Of a stretch of DNA of 64,000 nucleotides, positions 4,164-60,608 are shown one piece after another. The stretch is taken from the NCBI GenBank assembly GCA_019973935.1, contig BMAU01016994.1, positions 1,008,762 to 1,072,761 on the forward strand, written 5' to 3'. The position numbers and the translations under genes were made by a program. Under the pieces are notes generated by a model, which saw only the letters and a list, made by a program, of their open reading frames with translations, was not told where the DNA came from and did no database searches. This DNA is from Trichonephila clavipes (Eukaryota). Numbering within the stretch: the stretch's first letter is position 1; the number at the start of each line of letters is the position of its first letter.

Positions 4164-4496
4164 TTTTACTTGAATAGGCGTTTTCCTTTGGGCGTCCGGA
4201 CTGTAAAAACAGTCGTCAATCCCATATCGTGAGAGTCCATGATGCTGGGCATGGCAAAAGTGGTGTTTTGCATTCTGCTGAGTGGCATGATGGCAATTGG
4301 TCGAACGATGGAATCCGGGAGGAGTGGCTATGGTGCTTCATCTGGGGGGAAAGTTTTTTGAGTTCTTTGGCTTAGCTGAGAGCTTAGAGGTTGCTCTCTA
4401 ATTGGATGCTGGGTACAGTGAACATTGACTCCAATTGGCTGCCCTGGGGACTGGGTTTATCCTCCCGTTGGTGTGGTGTGGTAGTTAGGAGAGGGG

Positions 4497-4616
4497 GGTG
4501 CCAGCTCAGGTGTCGTCCACGTCACTTGACCATGGTTCAAAATTACGTGGTCCGTCGCCAAAAGCCCTCGTGTAGCTGAACAGTGCGACGTTAATATTCA
4601 TTCATTCATTCATTCG
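4497..4616 (+). mobile_element. SINE1, 5'-truncated copy (3' ~120 bp with (TTCA)n tail)
   Basis: Matches the 3' part of the full SINE1 copies. Flanked by direct repeat GGGGACTGGGTTT (4447-4459 and 4617-4629). Confidence 0.8.
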
Positions 4617-4717
4617 GGGACTGGGTTTTAGAAAATGCGGAAGCGCAAGTCCAATGCGGAGAACAAGTGAAAAATATTTACAAAAATAAAAGAAAGTAAA
4701 ATTTTAGCTATTAAGGC

Positions 4718-9000: not shown

Positions 9001-9285
9001 TATGTACTCCTCTCTTACACTCTCGTCATTGTGACGCGTACTATCCGCGCCATCTGGTGGTTTCCTGTAATTTGCATATTCTTCTTCAAGATGTGTGTGA
9101 TAATTCTACAGGTGAAATTTTTATTTTAGAGTTCAATTTCTGTGTGATTCTGAATTATCCATAATTTATGGACATGAGTGTAGATAAGCACAAGGAAAAT
9201 TGAGAGGTCTTCATAGATTAAAAATTTTCCAAATCAAAATTCTCTTTTCTAGCTTGTGATTGATCACCAAGGCGTATTCTTGAAT

Positions 9286-9550
9286 GGATTAATGGAATAT
9301 TAATGTCGCACTGTTCAGCTGCACGAGGGCTTTTGGCGACGGACCACGTAATTTTGAACCATGGTCAAGTGACGTGAACGACACCTGAGCTGGCACCCCC
9401 CTCTCCTAACTACCACACCACACCAACGGGAGGACGTTTCAGCTCTCGACAGATTTAACGTGCATCGCTGCCCTACACGGCGGGTCTTTAATGGTACTGG
9501 GCTCGAACTCGTGACAAGGCAAGCCACGATCCGATACCTATACCACTCGG
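9286..9550 (-). mobile_element. SINE1 copy (tRNA-derived SINE)
   Basis: Reverse complement matches SINE1 (GCCGCGGTAGCCGAGTGGTATAGG...GTGCGAC). Flanking direct repeat CTTGAATGGA (about 9276-9285 and 9556-9565). Confidence 0.75.
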
Positions 9551-10397
9551 CTACCGCGGCCATATCCTTGAATGGAACGAACTGGTTTGTAGTAACTATG
9601 CACGAGATCATCCACTTGGAAAACTCTCCGCTTGGTAATATATTGTTACGTAGATCCGGGGTTCGATGATTTTATGCAAATCAGTCATAAAGAACAAGAC
9701 AGTTCCTTAAGAGCGATGAGAATTTACAGTCGAAACTCCAATCCTTGAAATATAGGATTCAGCAGCAATATTCACAGAATAAATCTTAGAAGGTCTTTAC
9801 ACCTTCAACAGTATTAAGACACAATTATTGGTGTCTAAAATACACGTATATAAAATATTATTCATAAGCAATCGCTCTTTCAACAACCGAAGTAATCACT
9901 ATTCACTTCAACAATCAGAGCAATAATACCTGATTGCTAGTCAAGACCAGATCAGACTGACTTTCGGCTAGCATCTCTCTTTCTTTATACCCCTCGCGGA
10001 TGATTCGAGAAATACCTGCTTGTGTCATAGGTCTTAAAATTAGTGTATTTCTCTACTAATTTCTAAAAGAATCCAGAGGGTTCCGAACGCACTAAAAATG
10101 GTCGCCAATATGATCACTAAGTCGCAAACTTGGTCGCCAAAAATGACGCCAACTTGGCTCTATCACCATGATTTCGCCAAGTTCCTATTGAATCACCATT
10201 ATAACGTATTATATATTATTATAACGTAACGTTATTTTTAACGTAAATTAAATCTAATTTAGAGTAAGATAAAGGCATTACACATCCAAATACAAATTAT
10301 TGACACTATTTAACACAAAATTCGTATCAATATTGTTGTCTTGACATTTGGAGTTTCTGGAAGACTGATGTTTCCAGAAAATATTATTGGTATAGCT

Positions 10398-15844: not shown

Positions 15845-16003
15845 AAGATTATCAATTTCTTTCCTTAAGTGTTCTTTCCTGTTTGGAGATAGTCTATAAG
15901 GTGCAGTTGAAACTGGTGGGTGGTCACCTGTGTTTAAAAAGTGTTTTACGAATGGAGTTGGTTCTCCCCCTAGTCTGAAAACATCTTTACTTTCATTAAG
16001 CAG

Positions 16004-16281
16004 GGGCCGCGGTAGCCGAGTGGTATAGGTATCGGACTGTGGCTTGCTTTGTCACAGGATCGAGCCCAGTACCACTAAAGACCTGCCGTGTAGGGCAGCG
16101 ATGCACGTTAAATCTGTCGAGAGCTGAAACGTCCTCCCGTTGGTGTGGTGTGGTAGTTAGGAGAGGGGGGTGCCAGCTCAGGTGTCGTCCACGTCACTTG
16201 ACCATGGTTCAAAATTACGTGGTCCGTCGCCAAAAGCCCTCGTGTAGCTGAACAGTGCGACGTTAATATTCAATCAATCAA
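16004..16281 (+). mobile_element. SINE1 full-length copy inserted between the gypsy PR and RT
   Basis: tRNA-like head GCCGCGGTAGCCGAGTGGTATAGG...GTTCGAGCCC, then conserved body and (TCAA)n tail. 13-bp target-site duplication TTCATTAAGCAGG (15991-16003 and 16282-16294). Confidence 0.85.
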
Positions 16282-16731
16282 TTCATTAAGCAGGACCATC
16301 AAATCATTTCTTTCTTCTACATTTAGAGCCTGTCCTTCTTCTTCTCGCGAATGGAGATCATTTGTCTCAGTTTCATCAACAGTGTTGCTATGCAATGGAA
16401 TTTCACTGGGAATCGAATTTGTGGGACAAGAACTACTATTTATTTCGACAGGACTGTCGTCTACAGGCAAAGGAACATCTTTTGAAAAAGGTACCCTGAA
16501 GCTTGGTTTGTCACCAAAATACCAAAAATTGTTACGCATGTCCATTACGATTCCTGATGTCCTTAAAAAGTCAACACCTAGAAGAGTGCGGTTACCTTTT
16601 GCATGTGGCAAAAAAATTAAATCGATTTGGAAAGTTCGTTCACCTACAGTGATTGGTACTGTAGCTTTTTGAACAAGGGATGTGGATTTCAGCACAAACT
16701 GTGCCTGTAGCCTCATAGACTTCGATGTCAA
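16270..16731 (-). CDS. aspartic protease
   Basis: ORF with ...IDLIFLPHAKGNRTLLGVDFL... (retropepsin-like). Confidence 0.6.
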   Translation of the reverse strand: MTSKSMRLQAQFVLKSTSLVQKATVPITVGERTFQIDLIFLPHAKGNRTLLGVDFLRTSGIVMDMRNNFWYFGDKPSFRVPFSKDVPLPVDDSPVEINSSSCPTNSIPSEIPLHSNTVDETETNDLHSREEEGQALNVEERNDLMVLLNELID

Positions 16732-23089: not shown

Positions 23090-24240
23090 ACCAAAACAAC
23101 TTTCAGTGGATCTCTACTCTATAAAATAAACATGCATGCTAAATTTGAAGTCTAAATGTAACAGAGCAAAAACGGAATTTTTATCATCAATACCTCGTTG
23201 ACAGCATTCTTAGCGGATTCCAATTCAACAAAAGAAGCACGCAAACCAAATTTTATTATTATAGTCTTAGCAGTTCAAAAACGGGAATTTTGTCTATCAA
23301 TACGCCCCAATAACTCTCCCCGCTTCCCCCTGGAGTTGATTTCCGTAAAATCCGTTCTTAGTGGAACTCTATTCAACTATAAAGAAAAGTGTTCAACAAA
23401 TTTCAAGTAAATGAGTTAAATTCAAAAACAGGAATTTTTCTATAACACGCCTTAATCCCTCGCAATCCCACTCCTTTGGGGGTCCGTTTACGCAAAAATC
23501 TTTGTAAAAGGAACTTTATTCCATGAACGGAACATACCTTCTATTAGTTGAAAAGCGGAAATATTTATCTATTACGCCCCTTAATCTCCCTCAGTGACCC
23601 TTGGGGATCAATTTCCCCCAGAACTATTTTGTAGCGGATCTCTACACCATGAAAGGAATTCGCTTACCAAATTTTAAGACTGTACGTCTAATAGTTTAAA
23701 AATGGAAATAATTAGCTATAACGCCCCTTAAGCCCCCGCAATGCCCCTTAGGAAACGATTTTCACAAAACCCATCTTATAGTGGATTTCTACTTAATGAA
23801 TGAAATCAGCTTACTAAATTTCGAGATTTTACGTCTAATAGTTTAAAAAAAGAGTTAATTGCCTATAATGCCAATTAATTCTCTACAACGCCACTTGGGA
23901 GTCGATTTTGACAAAACCCATTTTGCATCGGATCTGTACGCTATGAAAGGAATCCCCTTACCAAATTTCAAGACTGAACATCTAATAGTTTAAAAATGGA
24001 AATAATTATGTATAACGCCCCTTAAGCTCCCTCAACGCCCCTTGGAGGTCGATTTTTGTAAAAATCATTATGTAGGGAATCTCTACTTTATGAAAGAAAT
24101 CTGTGTAACAATAATTATCTATAACGCCCCTTAATTCCCCGTAACGCCCTTTGGGGTTCGAACTTTGAACAATCCGTTCTTATCTGACGTCTACGCCATG
24201 AAGGGAACCTACCTACCAAATTTCAAGTCTGTAGGTTTAA
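23090..24240 (-). repeat. satellite-like tandem array (right arm), inverted relative to 12620-13700
   Basis: Reverse complement of the left-arm unit (ATAACGCCCCTTAAG...CTAATAGTT...) recurs at ~140-bp spacing. Inner ends also align (13443-13700 versus 23090-23390). Confidence 0.8.
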
Positions 24241-24960: not shown

Positions 24961-25857
24961 TTAAATTAAATTGGGCTCGACTACTGAAGTCATTGACCTC
25001 CCTATCAAAAAGTGGGCTGGAGTTAAAGCGTTCAAGTCATCCGAATTGCTCGATAAAGGGCACAGTGGCCTGGAATTTAAAATTCCCTCTATTTGGATAC
25101 AAACAGTTAAAAATTCCTCATAGGTTAAATTTGAGCCACTGACAACTCTCCTAAGATGGTACTTTATTGATTTAACCGAAGCTTCCCAAAGACCACCAAA
25201 GGATGGCGCTCTAGGTGGTATAAACTTCCATTCTATACCCTCAGCAGATAAGAAACCTGCTAAATTATCATCTGAATCCTCAATAAGTTTTAGAAATCTC
25301 TTGAGCTCTTTATTGGCACCTACAAATGTTTTCCCATTATCGGAATACAATTTAGCACATTTACCTCTGTGACTAAAAAATCTTTTTAATGTAGCAATAA
25401 AAGCATCAGATGTAAGATCTGACACAATTTCTATGTGAATCGCTTTAGACACAAAACATACAAATACACAAATATAAATTTTATGCAAAATTCCTTTTCT
25501 TTGATTTTTGTACCTGATCATGAATGGGCCACAAAAATCCACACCAGAACAGTTAAACCGGTAATCTGGGACTACTCTATCACGGGGTAGATTACCCATT
25601 AGCTGAGAGGTAACAAGGGGTCGGCTTTTAAAACAGACAAGGCACTCATGCACTACTTTTCTGCATAATGAACGACCATTTAATGGCCAGAACTTTTCCC
25701 TTACATAGTGTAGAAGAGAAGAAGCACTAGTATGCAGATTCTTTCTATGGAAATGGACAATTATTTGAACAGTTAAATTATGATTTCCTGGTAAAATTGC
25801 AGGATGTTTATTAACATAAGGTAAATCTGAATTACTCAGCCGGCCTCCAACTCTCAA
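24961..25857 (-). CDS. BEL integrase
   Basis: ORF has an HX3H..CX2C zinc finger and a DDE core (..DNGKTF..). Confidence 0.75.
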   Translation of the reverse strand: MRVGGRLSNSDLPYVNKHPAILPGNHNLTVQIIVHFHRKNLHTSASSLLHYVREKFWPLNGRSLCRKVVHECLVCFKSRPLVTSQLMGNLPRDRVVPDYRFNCSGVDFCGPFMIRYKNQRKGILHKIYICVFVCFVSKAIHIEIVSDLTSDAFIATLKRFFSHRGKCAKLYSDNGKTFVGANKELKRFLKLIEDSDDNLAGFLSAEGIEWKFIPPRAPSFGGLWEASVKSIKYHLRRVVSGSNLTYEEFLTVCIQIEGILNSRPLCPLSSNSDDLNALTPAHFLIGRSMTSVVEPNLI

Positions 25858-25976
25858 TAATCCATCACTGTCTATAAAGGGGTTTAAATTTCTAAGTTTA
25901 CTATTAGGTGAGATAACTCCTTTACTTTATAAGCTCTTCATTTCAGCCAAAAAAACATGTTCTTGGACCATTCTGA

Positions 25977-27407
25977 TCAGTTTAGTTTCTGCTTGGTCTT
26001 ATCTGTAGCAGAAAGGGGACCACTCAATGTTAGTTTACGTTTGTTTACATTATTGCTAAATCTTAACACATAACTAACTATACGAACAATTTTCATATAA
26101 CTATTACTTTTACATAACAGAGTAGATAAAATAGAAGATACACAATTAGTTGAAACACAAACACTAGATGTAATTATATCAGAACTCGAACCAGTTTTCA
26201 GTTCCTTAGAATACTCGCATTCCTTAACTGGTGACAAACTTGTTTCTTCACTTGACAACTTACCTTTTTCAAGGAATTGTGGACCATGCCACCATAACCT
26301 TAAATTTGGAAGGTCACAAGGGCGCAGTCCCCGAGACAAAAGATCTGCTGGGTTGAGAACAGATGGCACATGGTTCCACTGGAATCCTTCAGTCAATTCT
26401 TGCACCTTGGCGACACGATTGGCCACGAAAGTTTTTAAACGATTGGCAGGTGTATTTAACCATGCCAATGCAATAGTGGAATCCGTATGTAGCACAATAT
26501 CACTTATGTTTAACCTCAAGGTGGAGTGTATTTTCTTGACGAGTTGAGCTAATAAAACACAGGCACAAAGCTCGAGTCGAGGTATGGAAATAACTCGAAT
26601 TGGTGCAACACGAGATTTGCTGGCAAGAATGCACACTTTGGCAACACCGTTGTGAAGAAAACACTGTAGGTAAACGACCGCTCCGTAGGCCGCTTCAGAT
26701 GCATCCGCAAATCCTTGGAGAACGATTCTAACATTATTGTCAGCCATAACAAATCTGTTAATTTTCACTTCCTCGATACATTTTAATGTTGTCACAAATT
26801 CTCTCCACTCGTTGGCAATTGAATTAGGTAACACATCATCCCAATCCAGTTTACATTGCCATAATTGCTGCAGAAACAACTTTGCTTTCGCAATCACTGG
26901 GCCTAAGAAATCCAAAGGGTCGTATAGCTTAGCAATTACATTTAAAACTTCACGTTTTGTATATATATGTTTAGCTGAAACAGATACCTTAAACACGAAA
27001 CAATCTTCAAATGGCTTCCAACTAATTCCCAATGTCTTCACAGATAAGTCAATGTCAGTAGAAAATGAATGCTCGACATCTGATGACAACGAACTATTTA
27101 ATAACTCAGGAGAATTAGATGACCACTTATGAAGGTTCATTCCACAAGATTGCAGGGCGTCTTTCAGTTGCGATTGCAATTGTTGAGCAGCCTCCAAATC
27201 CGGCGCTCCGCTCACAATATCATCCATGTAGGTATCATATAACAGGGTTTCAGAAGCTAAAGGAAATCTCGATTTTTCATCCTTCGCCAACTGCTGCAGG
27301 GTTCTTATGGCAAGGAAGGGTGCGTTGGACAGCCCGTAAGTGACAGTCTTTAGTCGGTACGTTAAAATTTCTGCATCTGGTCCATGTTTCCATATAATGC
27401 GTTGCAA
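25977..27407 (-). CDS. BEL RT (YMDD) plus RNase H
   Basis: ORF contains YMDDIVSG and the RNase H motifs ADASEAAYGAVVYLQ and HTDSTIALAWL. Confidence 0.8.
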   Translation of the reverse strand: MQRIIWKHGPDAEILTYRLKTVTYGLSNAPFLAIRTLQQLAKDEKSRFPLASETLLYDTYMDDIVSGAPDLEAAQQLQSQLKDALQSCGMNLHKWSSNSPELLNSSLSSDVEHSFSTDIDLSVKTLGISWKPFEDCFVFKVSVSAKHIYTKREVLNVIAKLYDPLDFLGPVIAKAKLFLQQLWQCKLDWDDVLPNSIANEWREFVTTLKCIEEVKINRFVMADNNVRIVLQGFADASEAAYGAVVYLQCFLHNGVAKVCILASKSRVAPIRVISIPRLELCACVLLAQLVKKIHSTLRLNISDIVLHTDSTIALAWLNTPANRLKTFVANRVAKVQELTEGFQWNHVPSVLNPADLLSRGLRPCDLPNLRLWWHGPQFLEKGKLSSEETSLSPVKECEYSKELKTGSSSDIITSSVCVSTNCVSSILSTLLCKSNSYMKIVRIVSYVLRFSNNVNKRKLTLSGPLSATDKTKQKLN

Positions 27408-27434
27408 ATCCTGCTGATCAGGATTTATTAATAT

Positions 27435-27905
27435 TTACCTGTACATCTTTTGGATGTCAGTCGTAAAAGCAAATTTGTGTGTTCTAAAACGAGATATTGT
27501 CTCAAATACATCTTCCTTCACTTCACCTTTCAATAAAATGTCATTAAGGCTTATGCCTGTTGTGGTGGGGGATGAACCGTTAAAGACGATTCTTAGTTTA
27601 GTAGTCAGTTTTTCAGGGCGTAATACACCATGGTGGGGTATGTAGTGATGTGTGGGTGGTTCACTTGACTCAACTACCCTTTCCAAATGACCTAACTCCT
27701 CATACTCCTTCAAAAATTCCGCATATAACGATAAATATCTAGAATCCCTAGATAACCGTTTCCATAATGAATTAAGTCGCCTAATAGCAATATCTTTGGA
27801 GTTTCCTAAACAAGACGGATCTTTATTTAATGCCATCGATACTACATACCTACCCTCACAATTCCTCCTATGATTGCGCACAAAATGATCCTCACACAAG
27901 GACAC
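27435..27905 (-). CDS. BEL RT N-terminal part
   Basis: ORF ...PHHGVLRPEKLTTKLRIVFNGSS... (BEL/Pao RT finger region). Confidence 0.6.
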   Translation of the reverse strand: MSLCEDHFVRNHRRNCEGRYVVSMALNKDPSCLGNSKDIAIRRLNSLWKRLSRDSRYLSLYAEFLKEYEELGHLERVVESSEPPTHHYIPHHGVLRPEKLTTKLRIVFNGSSPTTTGISLNDILLKGEVKEDVFETISRFRTHKFAFTTDIQKMYR

Positions 27906-27988
27906 CTCTGTATCAACCTTAGGCTCTATGTGAACACCCTCAATTTCCCAGAATTTTTTCAGTGTTTTGTTTAAATCGTCATCAACAA

Positions 27989-28267
27989 TTAATCCGCAAT
28001 GAACGCGATTCTCTGTAACTTGTGATCTACACTTCCACTTACAACATAACTAAACACCGTATTTTGTAACACTAAATGCGAATTATCACAATAAAATTTT
28101 CCAGGCTTTAACAATTCGTAAAAGATTTCAGCACCAAGTAACATATCAATTCTATCTGATATATTAAATTTATCATCCGCTAAGGGCACAAACTCTGAAA
28201 CATTAACATCTACATCAATCACCTTGTTTGGAATGAGATCTGTAATCTTATTAACTACTAACAACAT
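27989..28267 (-). CDS. BEL protease fragment
   Basis: ORF lies between gag and RT. Confidence 0.5.
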   Translation of the reverse strand: MLLVVNKITDLIPNKVIDVDVNVSEFVPLADDKFNISDRIDMLLGAEIFYELLKPGKFYCDNSHLVLQNTVFSYVVSGSVDHKLQRIAFIAD

Positions 28268-28271
28268 TAAC

Positions 28272-29966
28272 TCACTCTAAAGTTTTGGCTTTATTTGCAA
28301 CTGAAGTTTTTACGCAATTTTTAACAACCATAGAAGCATCATTAACGCACGAAACCACTGTATTTATTTTCTCCATTTTCAGCTGCAACTTCTCAGCACA
28401 TGCCCTCGTACATAAACAAGACTGCGATCCTACATCTAACAAGCATCTGACCTCCACCCATTGAGAGTATTTATTTTTAACAAGCGCGCGAACAGTACTC
28501 AAAAACACATTCTTTAGTCTGCCTTTCTCAAACCCAGTCGCCACAAACTGTGATTGTGAATTTGCTTCAACTGATCCTTCAATCTGCCCTGGAACAAAGG
28601 TAGGAGCATCCAAATTTAAATTACTAGTGGAAGTGGGATTCCTCGTTTTGTCACGTGAAAAATGAATCAAGCTATTATATATATGAGGTCTAAGGCAAAA
28701 ACAGTTTTTCTCTGAACGGCATTCCTTCAATCTATGAGGTAAAAAACAACGAAAACAAAGATTATTCCGTTTAACTACCTCTACTCTATCCTCAACTAAC
28801 AGTTTCTTAAACTGATAACACTTAGAAAGGGGATGAAAATTATTACCCTTACATAGAACACAATTTGTTTTGGTTTCGGCCACGAAAACATTCGACGAGT
28901 TTCTCTCTCGCCGCCAAGTGCCAACCGTCTGCAGTCTATATCGCCCATTTGTTTTGACTCCACTCCCTGGAATTCTGCTCATTAAATCATTCGAAACCTT
29001 TCCTCTCGCGGATAAATAGACATCACATTCCCTCCCAAGCTGTTGAGGCTTGAAATATGTTTCTCCCTGTTTCGTTGCAATATGATTCATCGTATCTCTA
29101 TCTAGCGTTTCAAATATTTTATCTGAAATTATTAGACCACACAAAGAGCGGAATTCATTAACTTTACGCAACTGACAATAATAATCGAAAGTTGCACTTA
29201 AGCGGGAAGCAAACTGAACATAGTTTTCGAATGGTAGTTTATGAGCCTTTTTAAAGTTGCTCAGGCATTCTTGAGGTGTCGGTTCAAATTCTCTTAATAT
29301 TAATTCTTTAATTTTAACATAATTGCTTAAATCCTCTTGACTGACATATGTTAGCAAATTATTGACTCTTTCTCCTAAAATATTTAATAGAACTTCGGCT
29401 TTTAGCTCATCAGGCACGGATTTGATTTGAAATGCCTTTTCTAAAGAATGAAAAAATAAATTAAATGACTCTGACCTAACCGGTACTTGAATTGTCAAAG
29501 TTTTAATGCTCTTTACCAAACTCTCCAATTTATCAGTTATGGAGCTTGGTTCTCCGCTTTCAAGAGATTGAGAATTTTTTTCGGATTCCTTCCTAACCTT
29601 CTCCAATTCTAATTGTTTTTCAATCTGAGATAATTTAATTTTTTCTAATTGAATTTCAGCCTCGTGCTTATATTTCTCAGCCTCGCGCTTATTTTTCTCA
29701 GCCTCGCGCTTATTTTTCTCAGCCTCGCGCTTATTTTTCTCAGCCTCTTGTTTACTTTTCTCTACAGCATTTTCAACAAGACTACGCACAAATTCAATAT
29801 CATTTTTATACACGGCACTTGATTCAATTAACTTTTTTAAATCTATTATTTTAGCTTTGCTAGGAATCTCCAAACCCATTTCCACAGCAACCGAGATAAG
29901 CTCGTCTTTCTTTAGATTTAATTTCAACGCCATTTTTAAACTTATTTTGTCACAACATCTACACAA
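28272..29966 (-). CDS. BEL gag (564 aa) with a zinc-knuckle region and an internal KNKREAE tandem peptide repeat
   Basis: Long ORF. The DNA repeat CTTATTTTTCTCAGCCTCGCG is present 4 times at 29640-29760. Confidence 0.7.
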   Translation of the reverse strand: MCRCCDKISLKMALKLNLKKDELISVAVEMGLEIPSKAKIIDLKKLIESSAVYKNDIEFVRSLVENAVEKSKQEAEKNKREAEKNKREAEKNKREAEKYKHEAEIQLEKIKLSQIEKQLELEKVRKESEKNSQSLESGEPSSITDKLESLVKSIKTLTIQVPVRSESFNLFFHSLEKAFQIKSVPDELKAEVLLNILGERVNNLLTYVSQEDLSNYVKIKELILREFEPTPQECLSNFKKAHKLPFENYVQFASRLSATFDYYCQLRKVNEFRSLCGLIISDKIFETLDRDTMNHIATKQGETYFKPQQLGRECDVYLSARGKVSNDLMSRIPGSGVKTNGRYRLQTVGTWRRERNSSNVFVAETKTNCVLCKGNNFHPLSKCYQFKKLLVEDRVEVVKRNNLCFRCFLPHRLKECRSEKNCFCLRPHIYNSLIHFSRDKTRNPTSTSNLNLDAPTFVPGQIEGSVEANSQSQFVATGFEKGRLKNVFLSTVRALVKNKYSQWVEVRCLLDVGSQSCLCTRACAEKLQLKMEKINTVVSCVNDASMVVKNCVKTSVANKAKTLE

Positions 29967-31513: not shown

Positions 31514-31790
31514 TTGTTTATAAACTCAAACTCAGTGGCGCAACAGCCTATGAGCGCCAGGGCCTATTGTGCATATCCCAGTATACGTGACTATTGGGCG
31601 CTGAGGTGCATGAGCAGATGTCCCGATCAGGTGGTCAGTCTGAAGCGTGACTTGGTACTCATTTATCCACTCATTGCAGTAGGGATGAAAGGTTGAGTCG
31701 ACGTTGTCCAACCCGGGAGTAGAACCCGGACCTGTGGAAGCGCTATACGCTACCACTCGGCCACTGAGCCTTTTCTTTATGTATATCTAT
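31514..31790 (-). mobile_element. SINE2 (second tRNA-derived SINE family) copy
   Basis: Reverse complement begins GGCTCAGTGGCCGAGTGGTAGCG (A box) ...GGTTCTACTCCCGG (B box). The downstream body is about 75% identical to 51421-51693. Confidence 0.65.
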
Positions 31791-37496: not shown

Positions 37497-38609
37497 GTAA
37501 TATGCTTATTTGTCTTTTAAATCTTATTTAGGTAAATTCAAGCTTATGTATTTAATGTTTTGCACATTTTAATATATATTAATTAATAATTTTGCTTACA
37601 AGTATATAAAAATTGAAATAAAGTATATTTTTAAATGCAACAAAAAATATTAGGAATAATATGAGGGCAATTTCAAAATTAATGCATAAAATGACATTAC
37701 TGCTGCAGGGTAGAGACATCACAAGGGTGATAAGTCAATTGTAGTTTGAACTTTGAGGAAGCAACTTGTATTCTTCTTCTATCAGTAGCTTGTATGTTTT
37801 AAATTAATGAGAGTTGCAAATGGAGCCTACAGCAGTCTCTGGTACTGTGAATGCTAAAGATTAAAGACTGAAACTTAACGTTCTGCCTGAAGAAGTATGT
37901 GATAATTTAACTATAGACTGTTTTGTGATTTAACAATAGATAGTTCTTATTGGAGAGCTCCATATTACCCATGAACCAAAAAATTATATTAAGATTTGTT
38001 GAAGGTCAAACAGAGGGTGATTTTTGTTTGTAGTTACCAAGGTCTAATCATTACAAAAAACAGGTTCATGTGGACAAAGTGTCATAAGACTATACTATCA
38101 TCCTTTACTGAAAAAAGGAAGAATGAATGTGCACAAAACTCAATCTCGATTGCTTTAGCTTGGACTACTTGTTCTCCTTGACAATGCTTGGCTGCTTGTT
38201 GCCCAGATTGTAATAGGACAGCTGCTTTAATATGGTAGGAAGGTGTTACCCCTTTATGCACCTTTCAGTCCTGACACAAGTCCATCAAATTTTGACTTAC
38301 AAAATTGAAAGAACCTATGTGAGAACTTATTTTTTTTATTTATGATCGACCATTTTACTTCCATTAATTTTCCGTCCATTTGGTAAATGAACAAAGATAA
38401 TGTATTAGATAGAATTAGAAAGCTTCCAAGCTGTTTGAATCCATCTCTGTGATGAAGGGAGACTACACTGAAAGCTTATAAAGAACTATTACCATCCAAA
38501 TTGATATGTAAATTTTAAAGAAATAAATGCATAACTTTTTTTATTAATTTTCCTATTTATTTCTTGCACCATTAATATTAGTGATGCACGCTTAACTTCC
38601 ATATGTGTA

Positions 38610-38745
38610 TCTTGGTGTGGAAGTTAGGAGAGGGAGGTACCAGCTCAAGTGTAGTCCTCCTCACTTGACCATGGTTTAAAATAATGAGGTTCATCTCCAA
38701 AAGCCCTCGTGTAGCTGAATAGCCCAACACTAATATTTATTTACT
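38610..38745 (+). mobile_element. old, diverged SINE1 3' fragment
   Basis: About 80% match to the SINE1 3' region (GGTACCAGCTCAAGTGTAGTCC...CCCTCGTGTAGCTGAATAGC). Confidence 0.55.
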
Positions 38746-41498
38746 CACTCCATATGTGTATCTGTTAATATTGATTAAAGCCGTTTTTTTTGCATTTTTG
38801 TGCTTATTTCCATAATTTTGTAATTAAATGCTGTTTTAGCCTTAAAATACATTTTGATAGCTCTATTTTGCAGTCTGATACAACATATTTAATGGCATTC
38901 ACAACAAGTTTGTGTGCATGATGTTACTACATAAATATGAATAATTCTGTATCTCAGGAAGATGAATTTGAGGAGTACTTAAAACTAGCTTTGAAATTTG
39001 GTTCAGAAATTAATTGAAGGATTCACATCATCCACAGAAAGCTATTTGAAAATAATTGAGCTTGTAATGTCTAGATATGAGAAAGAGGAATTTTTAATAT
39101 AATTATATGTTAGAGAATTGTTACTCTTGTTCTTCAAAAAGGATGGGAAATTCCAGTTGTCTAGTTATATAATAAATTAGAATCTCAATTGCATACCCTA
39201 GATTCCTTGGGAACTTAGAACTTACTGAAAAAGAACTCTCCTTAGAACAGAGTCTAATAACTATTATCATTTAACTTTTGTTCTTTTTTAGTATTAAGGT
39301 GCATATATATAACTGTAATTGATGACAGTGTAATTAACTTTTTAGCTTAATTTTAAGAGAAATTACCATTCTTCAGACTGAGAAATATTTTTTAGACAAT
39401 CATTAAAAATAAACTTTTGTTGAATTGTTTAATCAGTTATATTGATTTTTGTCATATTGACTCTTTGCAATTAGATTGTCTAAAATGTAATTCATAGGAT
39501 GTCTAAATATTTTCTGTGTGTGTGTAAATATCAGTTATTCTGAAAAATTACTTAATATTGACAAAAATAGGGTTATTGAAAAATTAAAGGGAATGTTTTC
39601 AAAAATATTAATAATTTTTTACCTCAAAATGCAGTTATGTCAACAGTATTACTTTTTTTTTCATTTTGGAAGTAAATTCATAATAAATTCGTGATATTTA
39701 TGAATTATTTTCATGCTTGTGATTTATTACCAATGATTAAAACTGCATGCCAGAGAATTTTCCAAAGACATTACATGTTATGACAACCAATTTGATATCC
39801 TAAAAATATTTTCTAAAATTTATTGAAATCCCCTGAAGATCACAGATGACATGGGGTTAGTATTTAAGTACTAAGAAGTTGATTATAGATTTCAGTTGTG
39901 TAATTGTTTTAAGGTGCATGTTGTGTCAGTTTTTGCAATTTTAGATTTTAAAACTATTTAAAAAGAACAAAAAAATTTAATTTTTCAAACTGTGATTTAT
40001 GAAATAATGCTAAAAATGATAATTTTTAAAAATTACTATTTGTTACATTTAAAGGTCAAAAACTCAGAATAATTGTTGGCTTGACAGTGATTAAAAAAGG
40101 AATGCAATTGTGACTCAAATACTTCAACTGATTCTTACTGTCTAAAAAAGTTTTTTGTCTCTGTTTTACTAAGATAGATTGTGTATTTTAGGAACATGTT
40201 GTTGGTCTAAAATTGAAGTTACTCATGTGTAAAATGATTAATAAATACAAAAGTTACATATATTCAGAGAATAGCTGTTATGTGGCTTAAAACTTAATAC
40301 ACAAATATCGTACCTTGTTGATATTTAAGTATCAAATTAACTCTTTTTTTAATTTTTGATATGTGTCTAAATTGTGATTTAGAAATGTCAATGAGAAATG
40401 TTTTCATAAGTGTACTACAGATATGAAATTTGTATATGTAACGTTTTTAACTCTAAAGAAACCTTTGACTTGTCTTTTCACTTTTATGCATTTAGCAGTT
40501 TAATGGAAGCCAGTATAGTATATATAAAGGCAATAGATTTTAATTAGTGGGTTATGGATTAACCAGAAAGCAAATTATTGTCGGGATACTGGAAAAATAG
40601 AAAGAAAAAAAATTCTCCATTTTCAAATAATTTTACCAAACTGAAATAAATCTACAAGTTAAAATCTGACCCAAACTGTAATTTTTTAGAGATAAGACAT
40701 GTGCTCTACCTATAGGAAGAGTTCATGTGTGAGGATTTTATAATATTGGATATGATATACAACATTACTACTGCTTGTAAAATAATTAATGGTTAACTTT
40801 AAAAAACATTAGGGCAGAAAATATTACTTGAAATTTTCATGAGTAATTACTTAGTTTTCAAAAGAGTGCTGTGTGAAGCAGTGTAAAAATATTAAATACT
40901 TTACAAAGCACAGATAGATGTAAAAATATTGATTAGGAGGCAGTGCCTGATTAATTAAATAAGAATAATAAATCATCCAGACATGAAATATGGAAAAATG
41001 ATGAAATTGGGCAGTAAGTATATTAAGATTTTACATAATGAACCAATCCCCATTAAAGAAGGGGAGTTATACCAAAGGAAGTGTAAGTCACACACACACA
41101 ATTCTATGTAAATGTTCTTAATTATTTAGAACTCTCAAGAAGATGGTAACTGCTCAAAAAAATCCAATCCTGGATTTAAAAGGAAATTAATCCTGGGCAA
41201 TCTAAGCACATTATTTGGCAAAAACTTTTTGAAAACACAGAATACAAATACAAAATTGTCATTTCAAGCGGTGATAAATCAAGTACTATGCTCTTCATCA
41301 ATTTCACATATATTATGATTTAATCTAAATTTTTTATCCAGGATTTTACCTTTCATTCCGAACAATCTGTTGCAAATGTTTCAGCAATAGTTTTATTTAT
41401 TGTATATATAATTTTTCTGTCATGAAATAATGTACTTTATTAACTCTAATGATCTACAATATGAATTAAATTTTACATGCATTATATTTACATAATAG

Positions 41499-43613: not shown

Positions 43614-44422
43614 GTAAGTTTTATCTATATGTCATTTTAAAAAGTAAAGGAACAAAACACTTTTTTTTAAAAAAAGAATATTTTGGAAAGAATGATTAAG
43701 TAGTCTAATTTAAAAATTTCTTTATAGTTAATCTAATTATAGATGATTTGCAATTTTAATCTTTTTTCTCAATTTCTAAGTCTTCCACCCCTTTTAAAAT
43801 TTTAAATATTTTCTTATTTCAATGTTTTAATTGTTGTATTTTTAATAATGTTATAGCGATTGTTTTAAACAGATGTATAGTAATTTGAAATATCTTTGTT
43901 ACATGTTTCCAAATCTTCAGATTTTAATTTCATCAGTCACTATTTTATGTAAAAATTGTGACAAAATACTGGGCTTGAAAATCATTTAGCATGCTTTAAA
44001 AGTTTAACAATAAAGATACTAATTAAAGTGCTTTTGCCATTTAAGGATTATTTGGAATTATTTTTTCTGTTTTCATTAGCTGTTACACAGTTTTAATATA
44101 TTAAATACACAAAACAAGCAATTAAGTTGACTTGATTGACTTGAACAATATTCAATTTTCTCATCCCAATTGCATGTATACAAACACATACTTTATTATA
44201 TAAAGAGGTAGGAACAAAAAAATTCAGAAATTGAGATAATCCATGTCAACAAAAATTTGCAGTATTTGAAATGCATTTTCTCTTCCTTTCATGATTGTTT
44301 CACTTCTGCTATCTTGATTGAATTGCATGCACAAATGTCTTTGTTCTATGATGTAAAAAATATGGATTTTTTTTTCAAAAGCAACACTGTAACACTAAAT
44401 TTTGTCAGCATTTGGGAAAACT

Positions 44423-44540
44423 TCGGTGCCAGCTCAGGTGTCGTCCACGTCACTTGACCATGGTTCAAAATTACGTGGTCCGTCGCCAAAAGCCCTCGTG
44501 TAGCTGAACAGTGCGACGTTAATATTCAATCAATCAATCA
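44423..44540 (+). mobile_element. SINE1 5'-truncated copy (SINE-a), left boundary of the tandem duplication
   Basis: SINE1 3' ~120 bp with (TCAA)n tail. Flanked on both sides by TTGGGAAAACTTC (44410-44422 and 44541-44553). Confidence 0.8.
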
Positions 44541-45454
44541 ATTGGGAAAACTTCATTTGAAACTTATGCTAACAAAATTATAGTAATTCTACAATGTTGA
44601 TTTCATGGGTGTATACATGATATCAGCATTTTAAAATCTGATGATCCAGTGCAGGTAAGTTCTCTGACAGACCTGCAGTTTTACTAATTGAGCTAAAAAT
44701 TTATTTCTGGAGGCAGAACAGTGGTCAAATGCCATTATCTTGACAGCTTAGAACAATTCAGGAAGTGCATTCATCATAAATTATCTCGGATGTTGCAAAA
44801 TGGACAATTGTGTATCATCTGAGACCAATATACAGGCGCACATTGGTCTCAAAGTGTCATACAGTTTTTTGCCGAATTTGAAAGTGAATGCTTTCACATT
44901 TTGCCTATTTACAGGATTTAGCCCTGTGTTAGTTTTACTTATTTTAAGAATGAAACTTAAATATCTGCTAGGGTATCATTTTTTGTTTTTATATCATATA
45001 ACAACAGCTTTGCGAGAGGTTTTATGGATAGTTGCAAAAGATGGCTTTTGTATTGCTTCCATAAGTTGTACCACTTCTGTCAAAGGTGTATTGTTGCCCT
45101 AAAGGAATATTTTGAAGGTTGTTGTGTATTAATATTTTTAGATATTAGAGTTTTGAAAATTTTATGCCTTCAACTTTAGGATCCTGCTTCATAGGATAAT
45201 TTTAGAAACAGAGTTTTTATACCTTTGGCAGTTGTTAAGCTTAGAAAAATTGAATACTTTTGCATTTTACCTATATGGTAATATTAATAATATTATTTAA
45301 TCATAACTTTATTAACATTAGTTTAATATCTTAGGAATTGCAACTTGATTTTAAGTATATTGAGCCAGTCTTTTTTCAATTCCCACTATTAGCTCACACT
45401 CTCTATATATTTATTTATCTTGTTCAAATTTTCAATCATTAATAAAATACATTT

Positions 45455-45900
45455 TAAAGTGCGCAGTTGAGCTGAAATTTTATATACATGATTATTTTGG
45501 ATGACAATACAGTAATTTAATTATAAATGATAAAAATTAATTGATTAAAACTAATTCAAAGAATTACAAATACAGCAACGTTGGCATAATTTTTTGCGAC
45601 TTAGCAACCCTTTTGGCGACTTGTGTCAAAACTTGAAAAAGTTTTTTTCTCACATTTTAAAGCACTCATTTGAGCTGAAATTTTCTATACTCTATTTTTT
45701 TGGGTGACAATTGATAATTTAATTATAATTAATTAAAATTAATTTACTGAAACAATTATATTTATAGATACAGCCACGTTGGTTTCATTTTTATCGACTT
45801 GTGTTAAAATTTTAGCAGATTTTTTTTTTCTCAAGTTCTAAAGCATTCTTTTGAACTGAAATTTATACACAATTGTTTTGGATGACAAATTAATTGCCAC
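45455..45900 (+). repeat. ~190-bp tandem repeat, about 2.5 units (duplicated again at 47790-48235)
   Basis: Units begin AAAGYRCKCAKTTGAGCTGAAATTT. A related fragment with GTCGCCAA motifs lies at 10080-10180. Confidence 0.6.
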
Positions 45901-46601
45901 TTAACATTGTGATTCTGTCATATGTATATACATATTTATATTAATTGTAACTATTTAATAATAAGTAGCTAAAAAATAAATTTTTTGTTTTTTGATCTAA
46001 GCAGGAATTGACTTTTTATATTACTTGTTTTTAAATTTTGTTTACCTTATTTTCTCTGAATCATAAATAAAATGAGGATAAGAAAAAATTTTTCAAGCTA
46101 GTGTAGGATCTTGATTTGGAAGTGTTTGTAATTATTGATAAAACTGTTATGTATGCTTAAATATGCAATTTCTTAAAAACATTTGCATTACTTTTTGGCT
46201 TTGTAAATGGTTTTGTGATCTTAATTTAAATTATATTGGAAAAAATACCAAATGTATGAAAGATTTTACATCATTTAGTGTTTAACTTTTCAATCATAAT
46301 AGGCACTATAATTTTGAAAAATGTCCATTATTTTAAATTATTGTTATTGTAAGATAAAATTAAAATAATAAATCTACCTTATTTGTTACTCTTGTATATG
46401 ACATAATTTTCTGAAATCAAGATTTGTACCAAGTTTTCATAAAAACTTTTTCAATATTTAAGATTACATGGAGGTTATACCATAGACCGGTGGTCTTCAA
46501 AGTTTTTCAACTCATGAAACCCCTAGAACAAGAATGTGTTTTCATGGAAACCCTATAACTAGAGAGTATTTTCATGGGACCCTACTCCCCACACACACAG
46601 T

Positions 46602-46876
46602 GGCTGCGGTAGCCGAGTGGTATAGGTATCAGACCGTGGCTTGCCTTGTCACGAGTTCGAGCCCAGTACCACTAAAGACCCGCCGTGTAGGGCAGCGATG
46701 CACGTTAAATCTGTCGAGAGCTGAAATGTCCTCCCGTTGGTGTGGTAGTTAGGAGAGGGGGTGCCAGCTCAGGTGTCGTCCACGTCACTTGACCATGGTT
46801 CAAAATTACGTGGTCCGTCGCCAAAAGCCCTCGTGTAGCTGAACAGTGCGACGTTAATATTCAATCAATCAATCAA
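46602..46876 (+). mobile_element. SINE1 full-length copy (recombinant junction copy)
   Basis: 5' flank CCCCACACACACAGT. 3' flank TTGGGAAAACTTC. So the 5' flank comes from the downstream SINE and the 3' flank from the upstream SINE. Confidence 0.8.
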
Positions 46877-48936
46877 TTGGGAAAACTTCATTTGAAACTT
46901 ATGCTAACAAAATTATAGTAATTCTACAATGTTGATTTCATGGGTGTATACATGATATCAGCATTTTAAAATCTGATGATCCAGTGCAGGTAAGTTCTCT
47001 GACAGACCTGCAGTTTTACTAATTGAGCTAAAAATTTATTTCTGGAGGCAGAACAGTGGTCAAATGCCATTATCTTGACAGCTTAGAACAATTCAGGAAG
47101 TGCATTCATCATAAATTATCTCGGATGTTGCAAAATGGACAATTGTGTATCATCTGAGACCAATATACAGGCGCACATTGGTCTCAAAGTGTCATACAGT
47201 TTTTTGCCGAATTTGAAAGTGAATGCTTTCACATTTTGCCTATTTACAGGATTTAGCCCTGTGTTAGTTTTACTTATTTTAAGAATGAAACTTAAATATC
47301 TGCTAGGGTATCATTTTTTGTTTTTATATCATATAACAACAGCTTTGCGAGAGGTTTTATGGATAGTTGCAAAAGATGGCTTTTGTATTGCTTCCATAAG
47401 TTGTACCACTTCTGTCAAAGGTGTATTGTTGCCCTAAAGGAATATTTTGAAGGTTGTTGTGTATTAATATTTTTAGATATTAGAGTTTTGAAAATTTTAT
47501 GCCTTCAACTTTAGGATCCTGCTTCATAGGATAATTTTAGAAACAGAGTTTTTATACCTTTGACAGTTGTTAAGCTTAGAAAAATTGAATACTTTTGCAT
47601 TTTACCTATATGGTAATATTAATAATATTATTTAATCATAACTTTATTAACATTAGTTTAATATCTTAGGAATTGCAACTTGATTTTAAGTATATTGAGC
47701 CAGTCTTTTTTCAATTCCCACTATTAGCTCACACTCTCTATATATTTATTTATCTTGTTCAAATTTTCAATCATTAATAAAATACATTTTAAAGTGCACA
47801 GTTGAGCTGAAATTTTATATACATGATTATTTTGGATGACAATACAGTAATTTAATTATAAATGATAAAAATTAATTGATTAAAACTAATTCAAAGAATT
47901 ACAAATACAGCAACATTGGCATAATTTTTTGCGACTTAGCAACCCTTTTGGCGACTTGTGTCAAAACTTGAAAAAGTTTTTTTCTCACATTTTAAAGCAC
48001 TCATTTGAGCTGAAATTTTCTATACTCTATTTTTTTGGGTGACAATTGATAATTTAATTATAATTAATTAAAATTAATTTACTGAAACAATTATATTTAT
48101 AGATACAGCCACGTTGGTTTCATTTTTATCGACTTGTGTTAAAATTTTAGCAGATTTTTTTTTTCTCAAGTTCTAAAGCATTCTTTTGAACTGAAATTTA
48201 TACACAATTGTTTTGGATGACAAATTAATTGCCACTTAACATTGTGATTCTGTCATATGTATATACATATTTATATTAATTGTAACTATTTAATAATAAG
48301 TAGCTAAAAAATAAATTTTTTGTTTTTTGATCTAAGCAGGAATTGACTTTTTATATTACTTGTTTTTAAATTTTGTTTACCTTATTTTCTCTGAATCATA
48401 AATAAAATGAGGATAAGAAAAAAATTTTCAAGCTAGTGTAGGATCTTGATTTGGAAGTGTTTGTAATTATTGATAAAACTGTTATGTATGCTTAAATATG
48501 CAATTTCTTAAAAACATTTGCATTACTTTTTGGCTTTGTAAATGGTTTTGTGATCTTAATTTAAATTATATTGGAAAAAATACCAAATGTATGAAAGATT
48601 TTACATCATTTAGTGTTTAACTTTTCAATCATAATAGGCACTATAATTTTGAAAAATGTCCATTATTTTAAATTATTGTTATTGTAAGATAAAATTAAAA
48701 TAATAAATCTACCTTATTTGTTACTCTTGTATATGACATAATTTTCTGAAATCAAGATTTGTACCAAGTTTTCATAAAAACTTTTTCAATATTTAAGATT
48801 ACATGGAGGTTATACCATAGACCGGTGGTCTTCAAAGTTTTTCAACTCATGAAACCCCTAGAACAAGAATGTGTTTTCATGGAAACCCTATAACTAGAGA
48901 GTATTTTCATGGGACCCTACTCCCCACACACACAGT

Positions 48937-49211
48937 GGCTGCGGTAGCCGAGTGGTATAGGTATCAGACCGTGGCTTGCCTTGTCACGAGTTCGAGCCCA
49001 GTACCACTAAAGACCCGCCGTGTAGGGCAGCGATGCACGTTAAATCTGTCGAGAGCTGAAATGTCCTCCCGTTGGTGTGGTAGTTAGGAGAGGGGGTGCC
49101 AGCTCAGGTGTCGTCCACGTCACTTGACCATGGTTCAAAATTACGTGGTCCGTCGCCAAAAGCCCTCGTGTAGCTGAACAGTGCGACGTTAATATTCAAT
49201 CAATCAATCAA
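48937..49211 (+). mobile_element. SINE1 full-length copy (SINE-b)
   Basis: Flanked by CCCCACACACACA on both sides (target-site duplication). Confidence 0.8.
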
Positions 49212-51420
49212 ACCCCACACACACACTTAGAAGAATATTTCTTAAAATAATATTTAAAGTATATCAACAATAGATCAATATAAAGGAAATTGAAAAAAGT
49301 ATTGCATTTATTAAAACATTTTTAATCTACATTTAATAATCTACTCATTAATAATATTAATCTGTGATCCAAGTGTTACCTACCCATGCATTATGCTTAG
49401 TAACTGGGATGTGCTTGCATTTTTTTCATTTATACTGTCAAAGTCTAGGTCTATTGAAAATAACTGCAATAACATTATATATTTGGAGTTTCATTTGTTT
49501 CTATGCTTTTTGTTTGTAGTCAATCATGTTGCAAAATACTTTTCACTTATATATTGCAATGACAGTAAAATGTTTATGGCTATGTGAGAAATACTGTGTA
49601 TTTTGCATGAGAGAGAGAATTTGCAACATAAAATTTAGGATCTGTTCTTGCTTAAATTTAGATTTTTAACATCAAATTTGTTGTTATATTGTAGGTGTTT
49701 TTCCACAAATATAAAAAGGTGTATTTTCGTTTAGAAAACTATTAGTTTTGCAAAACAATACTAACGAGTATAAAATTATCTCGTAGAATTCAGAATAGTA
49801 AGCAATAAAATATTCACAATCTAGTAAGTAATGTATGTATAAAGATAAAAAGTTTCAATATTCTTTTATTATATTATAATAAAAGTTAAAAAAGTATTGC
49901 AAAATAAAGTTATGTATGAATAAAATTTTCAGTTTCTTAATGACAGGGATGAACTTTAAATTCGTGTGAGTGTATAAACATATTAAAGAACGTGAATCTA
50001 TTTTGCATACTCTTTTATAAGTTTCTTTTTGATTTTTTTTTATTGTGGAACCTCTGGGTATGCCTCATGGAACCCCAGGGTTATGTCTGCGATATATAAT
50101 AAGGCTTCACAACCTGTGGTATATGTATGTCCAGGGATACATGAAATGATCTCAGGAGGTGCATGGGAAAAAAAGGTGTAATGGTCAACATTGGTGGATA
50201 GACTGAACATAAGAGAAAATATCTGTTGTTATTCTATATATCTTAAATGGATCTTGATAGATGAGGAGTTGTGACATTATAATTCTTATTTTTCATATGT
50301 AATACAGGTAATACACTTTCATTCATATGAAATCAGGATTTCCTGTTAAAACGAACCACTAATACTTTTTTTTTACTTGTGTATGGACATCATTTCATGA
50401 ATATTTTTTTGTGGTGAAATAACTCGTAAATTACATAAGTAAAGTAAAAATTAAACATATTTGTCTTTTAATTATCGTATCACAGAATAACCAATTGTAT
50501 ATTCTTGTAGAATGTACTGTAATTTATTTATTGGTTGTACTGTAATGGACTTCACTAAAGTTGGTAATACTGCTTTGTCTGTATCTGTATTATTTTTGTC
50601 ATAATAGTTTTTAATAAGTTTAGCTTGCTCTTGAAGTAATAGTGCCGTAGTGTTATATATTTTAAATAGTTTAACTAAAAGTGTGTAATTACTAATGTAC
50701 ATTTATTACTAAATGGTGAAAATAAAAATATATTTGTATTGCAGAATTATTACTGTATCTAATTTTGGTAATTGTTCATGGCAGTCAATGATTCTATGTT
50801 GAGAGGTACATGAGTAAAACAAGTTGAGAAATGCTATTATAGTGTATAGTTCTTTATAATTCACACATTATATTTAAGTTATCAGTTGGAACAAATTTAT
50901 TTGAAATGTCATATAGTAATCAGAATTTATAATTATTTTAATGTAGATATTTGTTTTTAGTAGTACAGAAAAGTTTTCTGTATATTGACTTGTATTTTTA
51001 TACTAATTTTAACTTAATATTTTAGTTTCACTTTATTATGTATATAATCTGGTATGCATTATCATTGCTGGATTTTGATTTTTGGAAATTGAATGAGAAT
51101 TAAGAATTTTTCCTTTCTATTACTGTAAAAAGAATGATTTTCGGTCTTCAAAATGTTTGCAAGAAATGTAACTAATAAATTATTTTTGAATGTAAAATTA
51201 AATTTTTTAAATTGTGTAATTGAATAGTTCATGATCTTACTGTGTCACCATTGATAGTCAATGTAATGAATAGATGTCGTATATGAATTATCTAAGTGTA
51301 CATATTTTTTCTCCACATATTCAGTGTAATATTTTTAATGTCTATTTTAGTAAATTATTTTAAATTTAATTTAGATTTGATGTGATAGCTTATCATATTT
51401 ATGATGAATTAAAAAAAAAG

Positions 51421-51693
51421 AGGGAAGCCTAGTGGCTGAGTGGTAAGTGTATCGCACTTCCACACCACAGGTCTGGGGTTCAAACCCCGAGCTGGGCAAG
51501 GTTGACTCAGCCTTTCATCCCTTCAGTAGGCTGATAAATGAGTGCCAAGCTTGCTTGGGAACTTAACACTGTGAGTTTCGCACCTGACCGGAACATCTGC
51601 TCATGCACCTCAGAGCCCAAGGTCGTGTATATTGAGTTGGTCACAGTAGGCCTTGGCCCTCATGGGCTGTCGTGCCACTGAGTTAAGTTAAAA
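51421..51693 (+). mobile_element. SINE2 copy
   Basis: GCCTAGTGGCTGAGTGGTAAG...GGTTCAAACCCC tRNA-like head plus conserved body. Preceded by an A-rich stretch. Confidence 0.65.
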
Positions 51694-59658: not shown

Positions 59659-60608
59659 GTGAGTATACTTTTATAAACTATGAAAGAAAATTATGGGATT
59701 GTTCAGATTCTCCAAAATAAATGAAATTGTTCACAAATATATGAGGAACATAGCTTAAGAAAGGTTTGACAGTACAACAAACCTTAATAAATTATGAAGT
59801 TTCCCAGGGAAATATCTTCATAATCTCAAATATCAATAACCAGTGATATTACAGAAATATTTATTATTACTGTGGATATTGAATCAGTCTCTTACATACT
59901 GAGGAGTAACTGCAGTAATCAAGGTCATCTTTTTTTTCTTCTTGTGTAGTAGGGCTGACCTACCTTAATCTGTCAAGGCTCAAAATCCTCACATTGGAAT
60001 GGTATGTTAGTTTGAAGAATAAACTGCCATTTCGGGTCTCATTTGACTGGGGTTTAGAATCGTAAGGTCTAATTTCAATAGCCTTTGTGTTGCTTCAGAA
60101 TGCAACATTAATATAATCAAATTAGAATATAATCTTTTAAAATACTCAAGCTTCTTTTATTTTGCTTCTTGCCATGTTTGTATTATTTTAAGTGTATGTT
60201 TAATCTTAGTTGCATCTCTCTCTCTTTTTTTAAAACCAGTCTTGCAGATTCAAATATTAGAGATAAGATTTTTGTTATGAAAGCAGTTCTCAACCCTTTA
60301 ATGGATTGTTTGCCTGTTAAAAATTTACTGAAGACAATAGAGTTAAAACGAGATAGAGAGAGAGAAGGAAAACTGTAGTATTTTACAGCATATGACACAA
60401 ATAAGTTCAATTTAATTTGCTATCCATACTTTTATTAATAAAATTTGATTAATGTTATTCTTCATTAGTTCTAGTATTCTGTTTTAGACCTTTTTTTTTT
60501 TAAAAAAAAATTAAGGATTTGTTTGAGTGGTAAATTTAAATATTAGTGTGTATAATAAAATTGGATGGTTAAAGGTATTAATTTTTTAAATATTACATTT
60601 ATTCTTAG

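Follow-up and report, generated by a model that had tools for sequence, protein, structure and literature searches.

The general biology of tRNA-derived short interspersed elements (SINEs) with LINE-type tails other than poly(A) has been summarised previously (PMC4824008). Simple-repeat-tailed examples are MIR with its partner L2, the tortoise Pol III SINE with CR1, and the salmonid and cichlid families, all of which combine a Pol III head, a family-specific body and a 3' end made of short tandem repeats. They further show target-site duplications (TSDs) of variable length, 5' truncation, subfamily structure and high copy number. The spider element analysed here has the same layout and the same features, and in predicted structure and function it is a standard tRNA-headed SINE with a simple-repeat tail of the stringent type. 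It differs from those families in that its sequence is unrelated to theirs as far as compared (the MIR CORE), and in that those families share their 3' ends with known LINEs. Membership of the CORE/MIR group, suggested by a GTCACTTGACC motif, was rejected: the alignment to a MIR consensus gave z <0.6, and 143-428 of 500 shuffles scored as high.

Among chelicerates, the Ruka SINE of ixodid ticks was reportedly described by Sunter and co-workers in 2008. Two others are Isc-Nin-DC of Ixodes scapularis and the Limulus CORE-SINE 'Lipo' (PMC5804259). Like the present family, these three have tRNA heads and conserved central domains that persist for a long time, a likeness drawn from their descriptions with no claim of homology; in the spider element the body and 3' modules are common to Trichonephila clavipes and Araneus ventricosus. 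Another described set is that of Trichonephila antipodiana, in which RepeatModeler reported SINEs classed as tRNA-Deu, MIR and tRNA-Core, with 106,507 copies making up 1.1% of the genome (PMC7976613). These SINEs were published without sequences, and they belong to the same genus and the same element class and reach a similar order of abundance. The T. clavipes family is very probably among the automatically generated consensus sequences of that paper, and it is very likely contained in automatically generated repeat libraries in general, and a sequence-level description of spider SINEs was not found in the literature searched. We hold with good confidence that the element is a member of a lineage-specific family of tRNA-headed SINEs of T. 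clavipes, which is young and very abundant, and that the copy under study was made by unequal crossing-over.

An element of ~275 bp with a tRNA-like head, a conserved body and a microsatellite tail had been described at 46602-46876 of a 64-kb stretch of T. clavipes DNA (the window), and it is present there exactly as claimed. Its GC content is 54%, against 25-32% around it. With this focal copy as the query, seven SINE copies were found in the window by blastn, and one divergent copy was detected by a profile HMM alone, the profile being made from all SINE copies at hand (Table 1). Relatives were also sought in a T. clavipes contig of an older assembly (L001, 17.8 kb of non-N sequence) and in two further loci from other spider genera. 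The initial annotation had spoken of eight copies with clear TSDs; the number of copies stands, but only six of the eight have a TSD of their own (12-15 bp) and the focal copy has none. One copy start was moved from 4497 to 4460, and the remaining listed copies were recovered by blastn. All five flanking repeats listed earlier exist and are confined to the expected sites in the window, and a sixth flanks copy 38612, where it is a perfect 13-bp repeat (CCATATGTGTATC). The duplication around copy 9289 matches at 13 of 15 positions, with the core CTTGAATGGA on the plus strand. The TSDs vary in both length and sequence, and each of the four at 4460, 9289, 16005 and 38612 is found at its two expected sites and nowhere else in the 64 kb.

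Table 1 Coordinates of the SINE copies, predicted promoter boxes and duplicated segments in the window
Feature	Position	Strand	Remarks
Focal full-length SINE	46602..46876	+	~275 bp; head GGCTGCGGTAGCCGAGTGGTATAGG...GAGTTCGAGCCC, GC-rich body, (TCAA)4 tail
(TCAA)4 microsatellite tail of focal copy	46861..46876	+	
Predicted Pol III A box TAGCCGAGTGG	46610..46620	+	TRGCNNAGTGG matched 11/11
Predicted Pol III B box AGTTCGAGCCC	46654..46664	+	GGTTCGANNCC matched 10/11; starts 33 nt after A-box end
5'-truncated SINE, (ATTC)5 tail	4460..4615	+	TSD GGGGACTGGGTTT 4446-4458 / 4616-4628
Full-length SINE, degenerate tail	9289..9561	-	TSD 9274-9288 / 9562-9576
Full-length SINE, (TCAA)n tail, private B-box mutation	16005..16282	+	TSD TCATTAAGCAGG 15993-16004 / 16283-16294
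5'-truncated SINE, older or different subfamily	38612..38749	+	about 81-82% identity to young copies; TSD 38599-38611 / 38750-38762
5'-truncated SINE, insertion 'A'	44425..44541	+	consensus positions ~159-275; TSD-A TTGGGAAAACTTC 44412-44424 / 44542-44554
Full-length SINE, insertion 'B'	48937..49211	+	TSD-B CCCCACACACACA 48922-48934 / 49213-49225
Old degraded relative, body and 3' part	59945..60114	+	nhmmer E 2.6e-16, profile positions 84-264
Duplicated unique segment, first copy	44542..46601	+	2060 bp; begins with TSD-A, ends with TSD-B (46587-46599) then GT
Duplicated unique segment, second copy	46877..48936	+	2060 bp; begins with third TSD-A (46877-46889)

Truncation at the 5' end is real, but it affects three copies and not the two noticed earlier: half of the six TSD-flanked copies are cleanly cut, at consensus positions ~128 (4460), ~136 (38612) and ~159 (44425), and each truncation point abuts the left TSD. 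The 3' ends are intact in all TSD-flanked copies. Tails of the family, in the window and in L001, are (TCAA)n, (TTCA)n, (TCAC)n or degenerate, and terminal inverted repeats are absent from the element. Variable TSDs, 5' truncation and intact 3' ends are signatures of target-primed reverse transcription and not of a DNA transposon. According to established SINE biology, from which the insertion mechanism of the family is drawn, transcription by RNA polymerase III would start from the A and B boxes that lie inside the ~70-nt head, a LINE-encoded reverse transcriptase would recognise the 3' body and the simple-repeat tail, and the RNA would be copied into a staggered chromosomal nick by target-primed reverse transcription, leaving TSDs of 12-15 bp and frequent 5' truncation; the focal copy arose otherwise. 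The core of the earlier reading is supported: a short non-autonomous retroposon that was recently active, has its Pol III promoter inside the element, ends in a simple repeat and shows 5' truncation and TSDs that vary. It was to be given up if the head failed as a tRNA or promoter and TSDs were absent; A and B boxes and TSDs are all present.

The focal copy had been taken for an insertion with a clear TSD, which it does not have. On its left lies CCCCACACACACA followed by GT and on its right TTGGGAAAACTTC, so that the two repeats do not pair around 46602-46876. Its left flank matches that of copy 48937 and its right flank that of the truncated copy 44425; the element itself matches 48937-49211 with 100% identity, and its last 117 bp are the same as 44425-44541. 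The segments 44425-46876 and 46760-49211 form a tandem duplication with a period of 2335 bp and 4 differences in 2452 bp (99.84% identity), and the resemblance breaks off precisely where 44425 is truncated, on the left, and where the tail of 48937 ends, on the right. There are exactly three TSD-A and three TSD-B repeats, arranged along the locus as A,A then B,A then B,B. The unit differences fall at first-copy sites 45228, 45463 and 45580 (G/A) and 46089 (T/A). The simplest reading makes the focal copy the point where the two units of this 2335-bp tandem duplication meet, a chimera and not a fresh insertion. The copies at 44425, 46602 and 48937 share flanks and duplicated DNA, and they therefore represent two insertions and one recombination; the 100% identity of the three is therefore no evidence for three recent transpositions. 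As to the course of events, the 5'-truncated insertion 44425 and the full-length insertion 48937, originally 2.06 kb downstream and in the same orientation, would have misaligned through their shared 117 bp. Unequal crossing-over between the two SINEs would then have produced the 2335-bp tandem duplication, with a chimeric full-length copy at 46602-46876 as its junction, taking the left flank from one parent and the right flank from the other.

In primates, non-allelic homologous recombination (NAHR) between Alu elements yields tandem duplications and deletions. The spider locus resembles Alu-Alu NAHR in having SINEs of the same orientation a few kb apart, a chimeric junction SINE with swapped flanks, and a duplication of the intervening DNA. 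It differs in that the homology tract is merely 117 bp, because one parent is 5'-truncated, and in that the event was read from assembly sequence. The locus is a clean invertebrate case of recombination between two SINEs creating a tandem duplication, and it illustrates that SINEs shape spider genome structure beyond simple insertion.

Other origins of the three copies were weighed against unequal crossing-over. Three independent recent insertions, the origin implicit in the initial annotation, would agree with the 100% identity of the shared parts among all three, but 2060 bp of unique flanking DNA were duplicated along with the copies, and the flanks of the focal copy are mismatched, each being identical to the flank of a neighbouring copy; this origin has practically no probability left. 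The duplication and the focal copy could also be products of the assembly, if a repeat loop of 117 bp had been traversed twice and the two alleles of a heterozygous animal had supplied the 4 differences. The junction does lie inside an exact repeat, the locus is known from one assembly, and differences at 4 of 2452 positions (0.16%) could be allelic. However, the window contains no Ns or gaps, long reads or read pairs easily bridge 117 bp of repeat, and the architecture is exactly the reciprocal product expected of biological unequal crossing-over. Three of the four differences are G/A transitions, two of them at CpG sites, which fits real mutation, though it fits alleles as well. An assembly artefact is on these grounds considered quite improbable. 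Slightly less remote, and still improbable, is a real duplication made by replication-based template switching (slippage or an event of the FoSTeS/MMBIR type) primed by the 117 bp of SINE homology. The same product would be expected, with the junction likewise within the shared repeat, and the sequence itself does not discriminate this route from crossing-over; a tract of 117 bp at 100% identity is, from what is known of Alu-Alu events, more typical of homologous recombination than of microhomology-driven events.

A different kind of alternative concerns the nature of the element, which might be a short protein-coding gene, or a DNA transposon or MITE, instead of a retroposon. In one of its frames the SINE is free of stops over 81 codons, and this frame is intact in one sub-subfamily and confined to it. 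When the SINE-encoded peptide was used as a probe of protein databases, it matched 2,203 protein clusters (90% clustering) and 2,551 representatives (50% clustering), and the translated SINE was 98-99% identical to T. clavipes gene models. The best 120 matches and ten more sampled down to 63% identity were all T. clavipes entries named 'uncharacterized protein TNCV_*' or similar. These gene models, 83-400 aa long, join an arbitrary N-terminus to the same SINE-encoded C-terminus, ...RHLTMVQNYVVRRQKPSCS (e.g., P0125, P0126, P0128, P0145, P0185 and P0229), and some of the N-termini are fragments of a Tc1-like transposase or a LINE endonuclease. An open frame contained in >2,200 models could be taken to favour a gene. 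Against this, the frame is interrupted in every older subfamily and, at 49 codons, also in the focal subtype itself, and the N-termini of the models are unrelated to one another and drawn from whatever lies upstream; a DNA transposon or MITE is opposed by the lack of terminal inverted repeats, the variable TSD length, truncation at the 5' end only and the simple-repeat tail. A gene or MITE is accordingly given next to no credence, and coding potential of the 81-codon frame was rejected in favour of a chance ORF. Judging from their composition, the >2,200 'uncharacterized protein' models of T. clavipes are read-throughs of the SINE from flanking DNA, that is, annotation artefacts. Such models inflate gene counts, estimates of orphan genes and protein-family clustering, and masking of the SINE is advisable.

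The promoter evidence for the retroposon lies in the head. The A-box consensus has 6 matches in the window vs 0.35 expected, and the combined pattern AGTGG-N28-42-GTTCGANNCC has 3 vs 0 expected. The sense strand of the element has no TTTT run. The copy at 16005-16282 and a relative at 10277-10554 of L001 have a GA>AG change in common, which creates a canonical B box (GGTTCGAGCC, 11/11); compared with the focal subtype, the Pol III promoter of this sub-lineage may be the stronger one.

The head had been called tRNA-derived on account of its A and B boxes. The boxes are there, at tRNA-like spacing, but the young head was recognised as a tRNA neither by ARAGORN at default settings nor by Rfam at E<=10. 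At 70% of the default thresholds ARAGORN gave a match to the young head with a 4-nt anticodon, and at 60% the body was called a tRNA too. No matches at all were obtained with Rfam over the whole window at gathering thresholds. Folding of the head as a tRNA had been proposed as a way to find the parent. The young head alone has a stable fold (z -3.8), not a cloverleaf but a long hairpin. An older head, that of the relative at L001:1240-1307, gave a full-length Rfam tRNA match of 23.8 bits, below the gathering score of 29, with E 0.52 when corrected for 4227 families and ~1e-4 when taken as a single prior hypothesis. This older head has a good D-arm, a T-stem paired at 5/5 positions and a CUCGUGG anticodon-like loop, and one base of the anticodon-like loop has been lost in the young subfamily. 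No parent emerged consistently best from a panel of 26 tRNA sequences; tRNA-Arg, suggested by the 5' GGCCGCG and the D-arm, did not stand out, and Lys, Arg, Ile, Thr and His each rank first with one head or another. Overall, a tRNA ancestry, for which the A and B boxes are the main ground, is weakly supported, and we regard it as likely but degraded. The initial annotation was right in the kind of element, wrong for the copy that it flagged, and it overstated the tRNA evidence.

At the 3' end, we infer that the SINE depends on a LINE. The search for a partner with a (TCAA)n 3' tail, advised earlier, came out empty: among the LINEs of the window and of L001-L003, none was found to have a 3' end in common with the SINE. 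When compared with the SINE tail, the 3' ends of the two Jockey-like LINEs in the window score no better than shuffled sequence. A Jockey-like 3' UTR with ACGTTTATTCATTCA, which resembles the SINE end, was rejected, about a third of shuffles scoring as high. The simple-repeat nature of the SINE tail speaks against a Jockey partner of the poly(A) type. Penelope, I, I-Jockey and R1 have been reported as LINE clades of Trichonephila, and among them an element of the I clade would be the most plausible class of partner.

Conservation of the body and 3' modules extends to subfamilies whose heads differ. Three candidate 3' helices are paired in 81.5% of cells, vs 29-50% with slid partners, and one 3' stem reads CCACG...CGTGG in the young subfamily vs CCTCG...CGAGG in older ones, a single A:U to U:A swap at the level of the subfamily. 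As the helices were derived from the very sequences scored, a conserved 3' structure is suggestive only. At 18380-18620 of L001, a divergent relative combines the common body and 3' modules and a (TCAA)n tail with a tRNA-like head of another sequence (GGTCGCTATAGTCCAGTGGTTATG...). This copy suggests that heads may have been exchanged on a conserved 3' module within a group of spider SINEs. A wider reading, which we offer tentatively as a possibility, is that the modules CGTTAAATCT ... CTTGACCATGGTTCAAAATTAC ... GACGTTAAT and the tetranucleotide tail belong to an undescribed SINE superfamily of araneoid spiders, that they predate the split of Araneus and Trichonephila, and that heads would have been exchanged while the 3' stem was kept by compensatory change as the recognition element of a still-active LINE. 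Were this so, the family would still be moving in T. clavipes at present; it would drive structural variation and could serve as a presence/absence marker.

The relatives outside the window bear on abundance and age. L001 contains about 16 of them, with 70-97% identity and (TCAA)n or (TCAC)n tails, several with TSDs. A relative of the body and 3' part was found in Araneus ventricosus (L003:7221-7347, E 5.7e-16), and no relative was found in the small Stegodyphus sample of 24.6 kb. A metagenome scan for the SINE gave 0 matches. Scans of viruses and prokaryotes gave one 20-mer match each, which did not extend beyond ~22 nt and was hence dismissed as chance.

Recent activity, as had been proposed, is supported: independent insertions do not differ at all over their 3' 110 bp, and the CpG observed/expected ratio, ~1.0 in young copies, falls to 0.67-0.85 in old ones. 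By shared diagnostic changes the young copies fall into at least three sub-lineages, namely 16005 with L001 10277, 9284 with L12773, and the 48937 type, which is marked by deletions of 5 bp and 1 bp. This pattern supports recent activity from probably several source copies. Spider genomes are large and repeat-rich, and a SINE consensus with sub-lineages is a usable marker system for Trichonephila. The general understanding of how SINEs work is unchanged by these results; their practical yield lies in the recombination junction and in the finding that gene models are contaminated on a large scale.

The region from 1 to 30000 of the window is dense in retroelement debris. Fragments of Jockey/X-like LINEs lie at 7019-8976 (-) and 18864-20361 (-), and a Jockey/X-element-like reverse transcriptase ORF at 18864-19754 (-) is 88-95% identical to T. 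clavipes proteins. Copy 16005 adjoins a Gypsy-like pol fragment, with reverse transcriptase and RNase H at 14857-15546 (-). A BEL/Pao element at 24961-29966 (-) has gag-like, protease/reverse transcriptase and integrase ORFs, and just downstream of its integrase ORF there is a tandem array at 23540-24101 with a 147-bp unit, 3.8 copies and 73% match. In L001, a sub-threshold Rfam match to SNORD12/106, a C/D-box snoRNA, lies at 11658-11725 (-) with 28.4 bits (E 0.042; gathering score 43) and is unrelated to the SINE. Finally, a second, unrelated family of tRNA-headed SINEs, which the profile of the first does not match, is present in the window at 51424-51693 (+) and 31520-31770 (-). Both copies contain the A box TGGC(T/C)GAGTGG and, in the body, the common motif GACTCA(G/A)CCTTTCATCCCT...GATAAATGAGT(G/A)CCAAG, and the copy at 51424 is flanked by an A-rich repeat, AAAAAAAGA.
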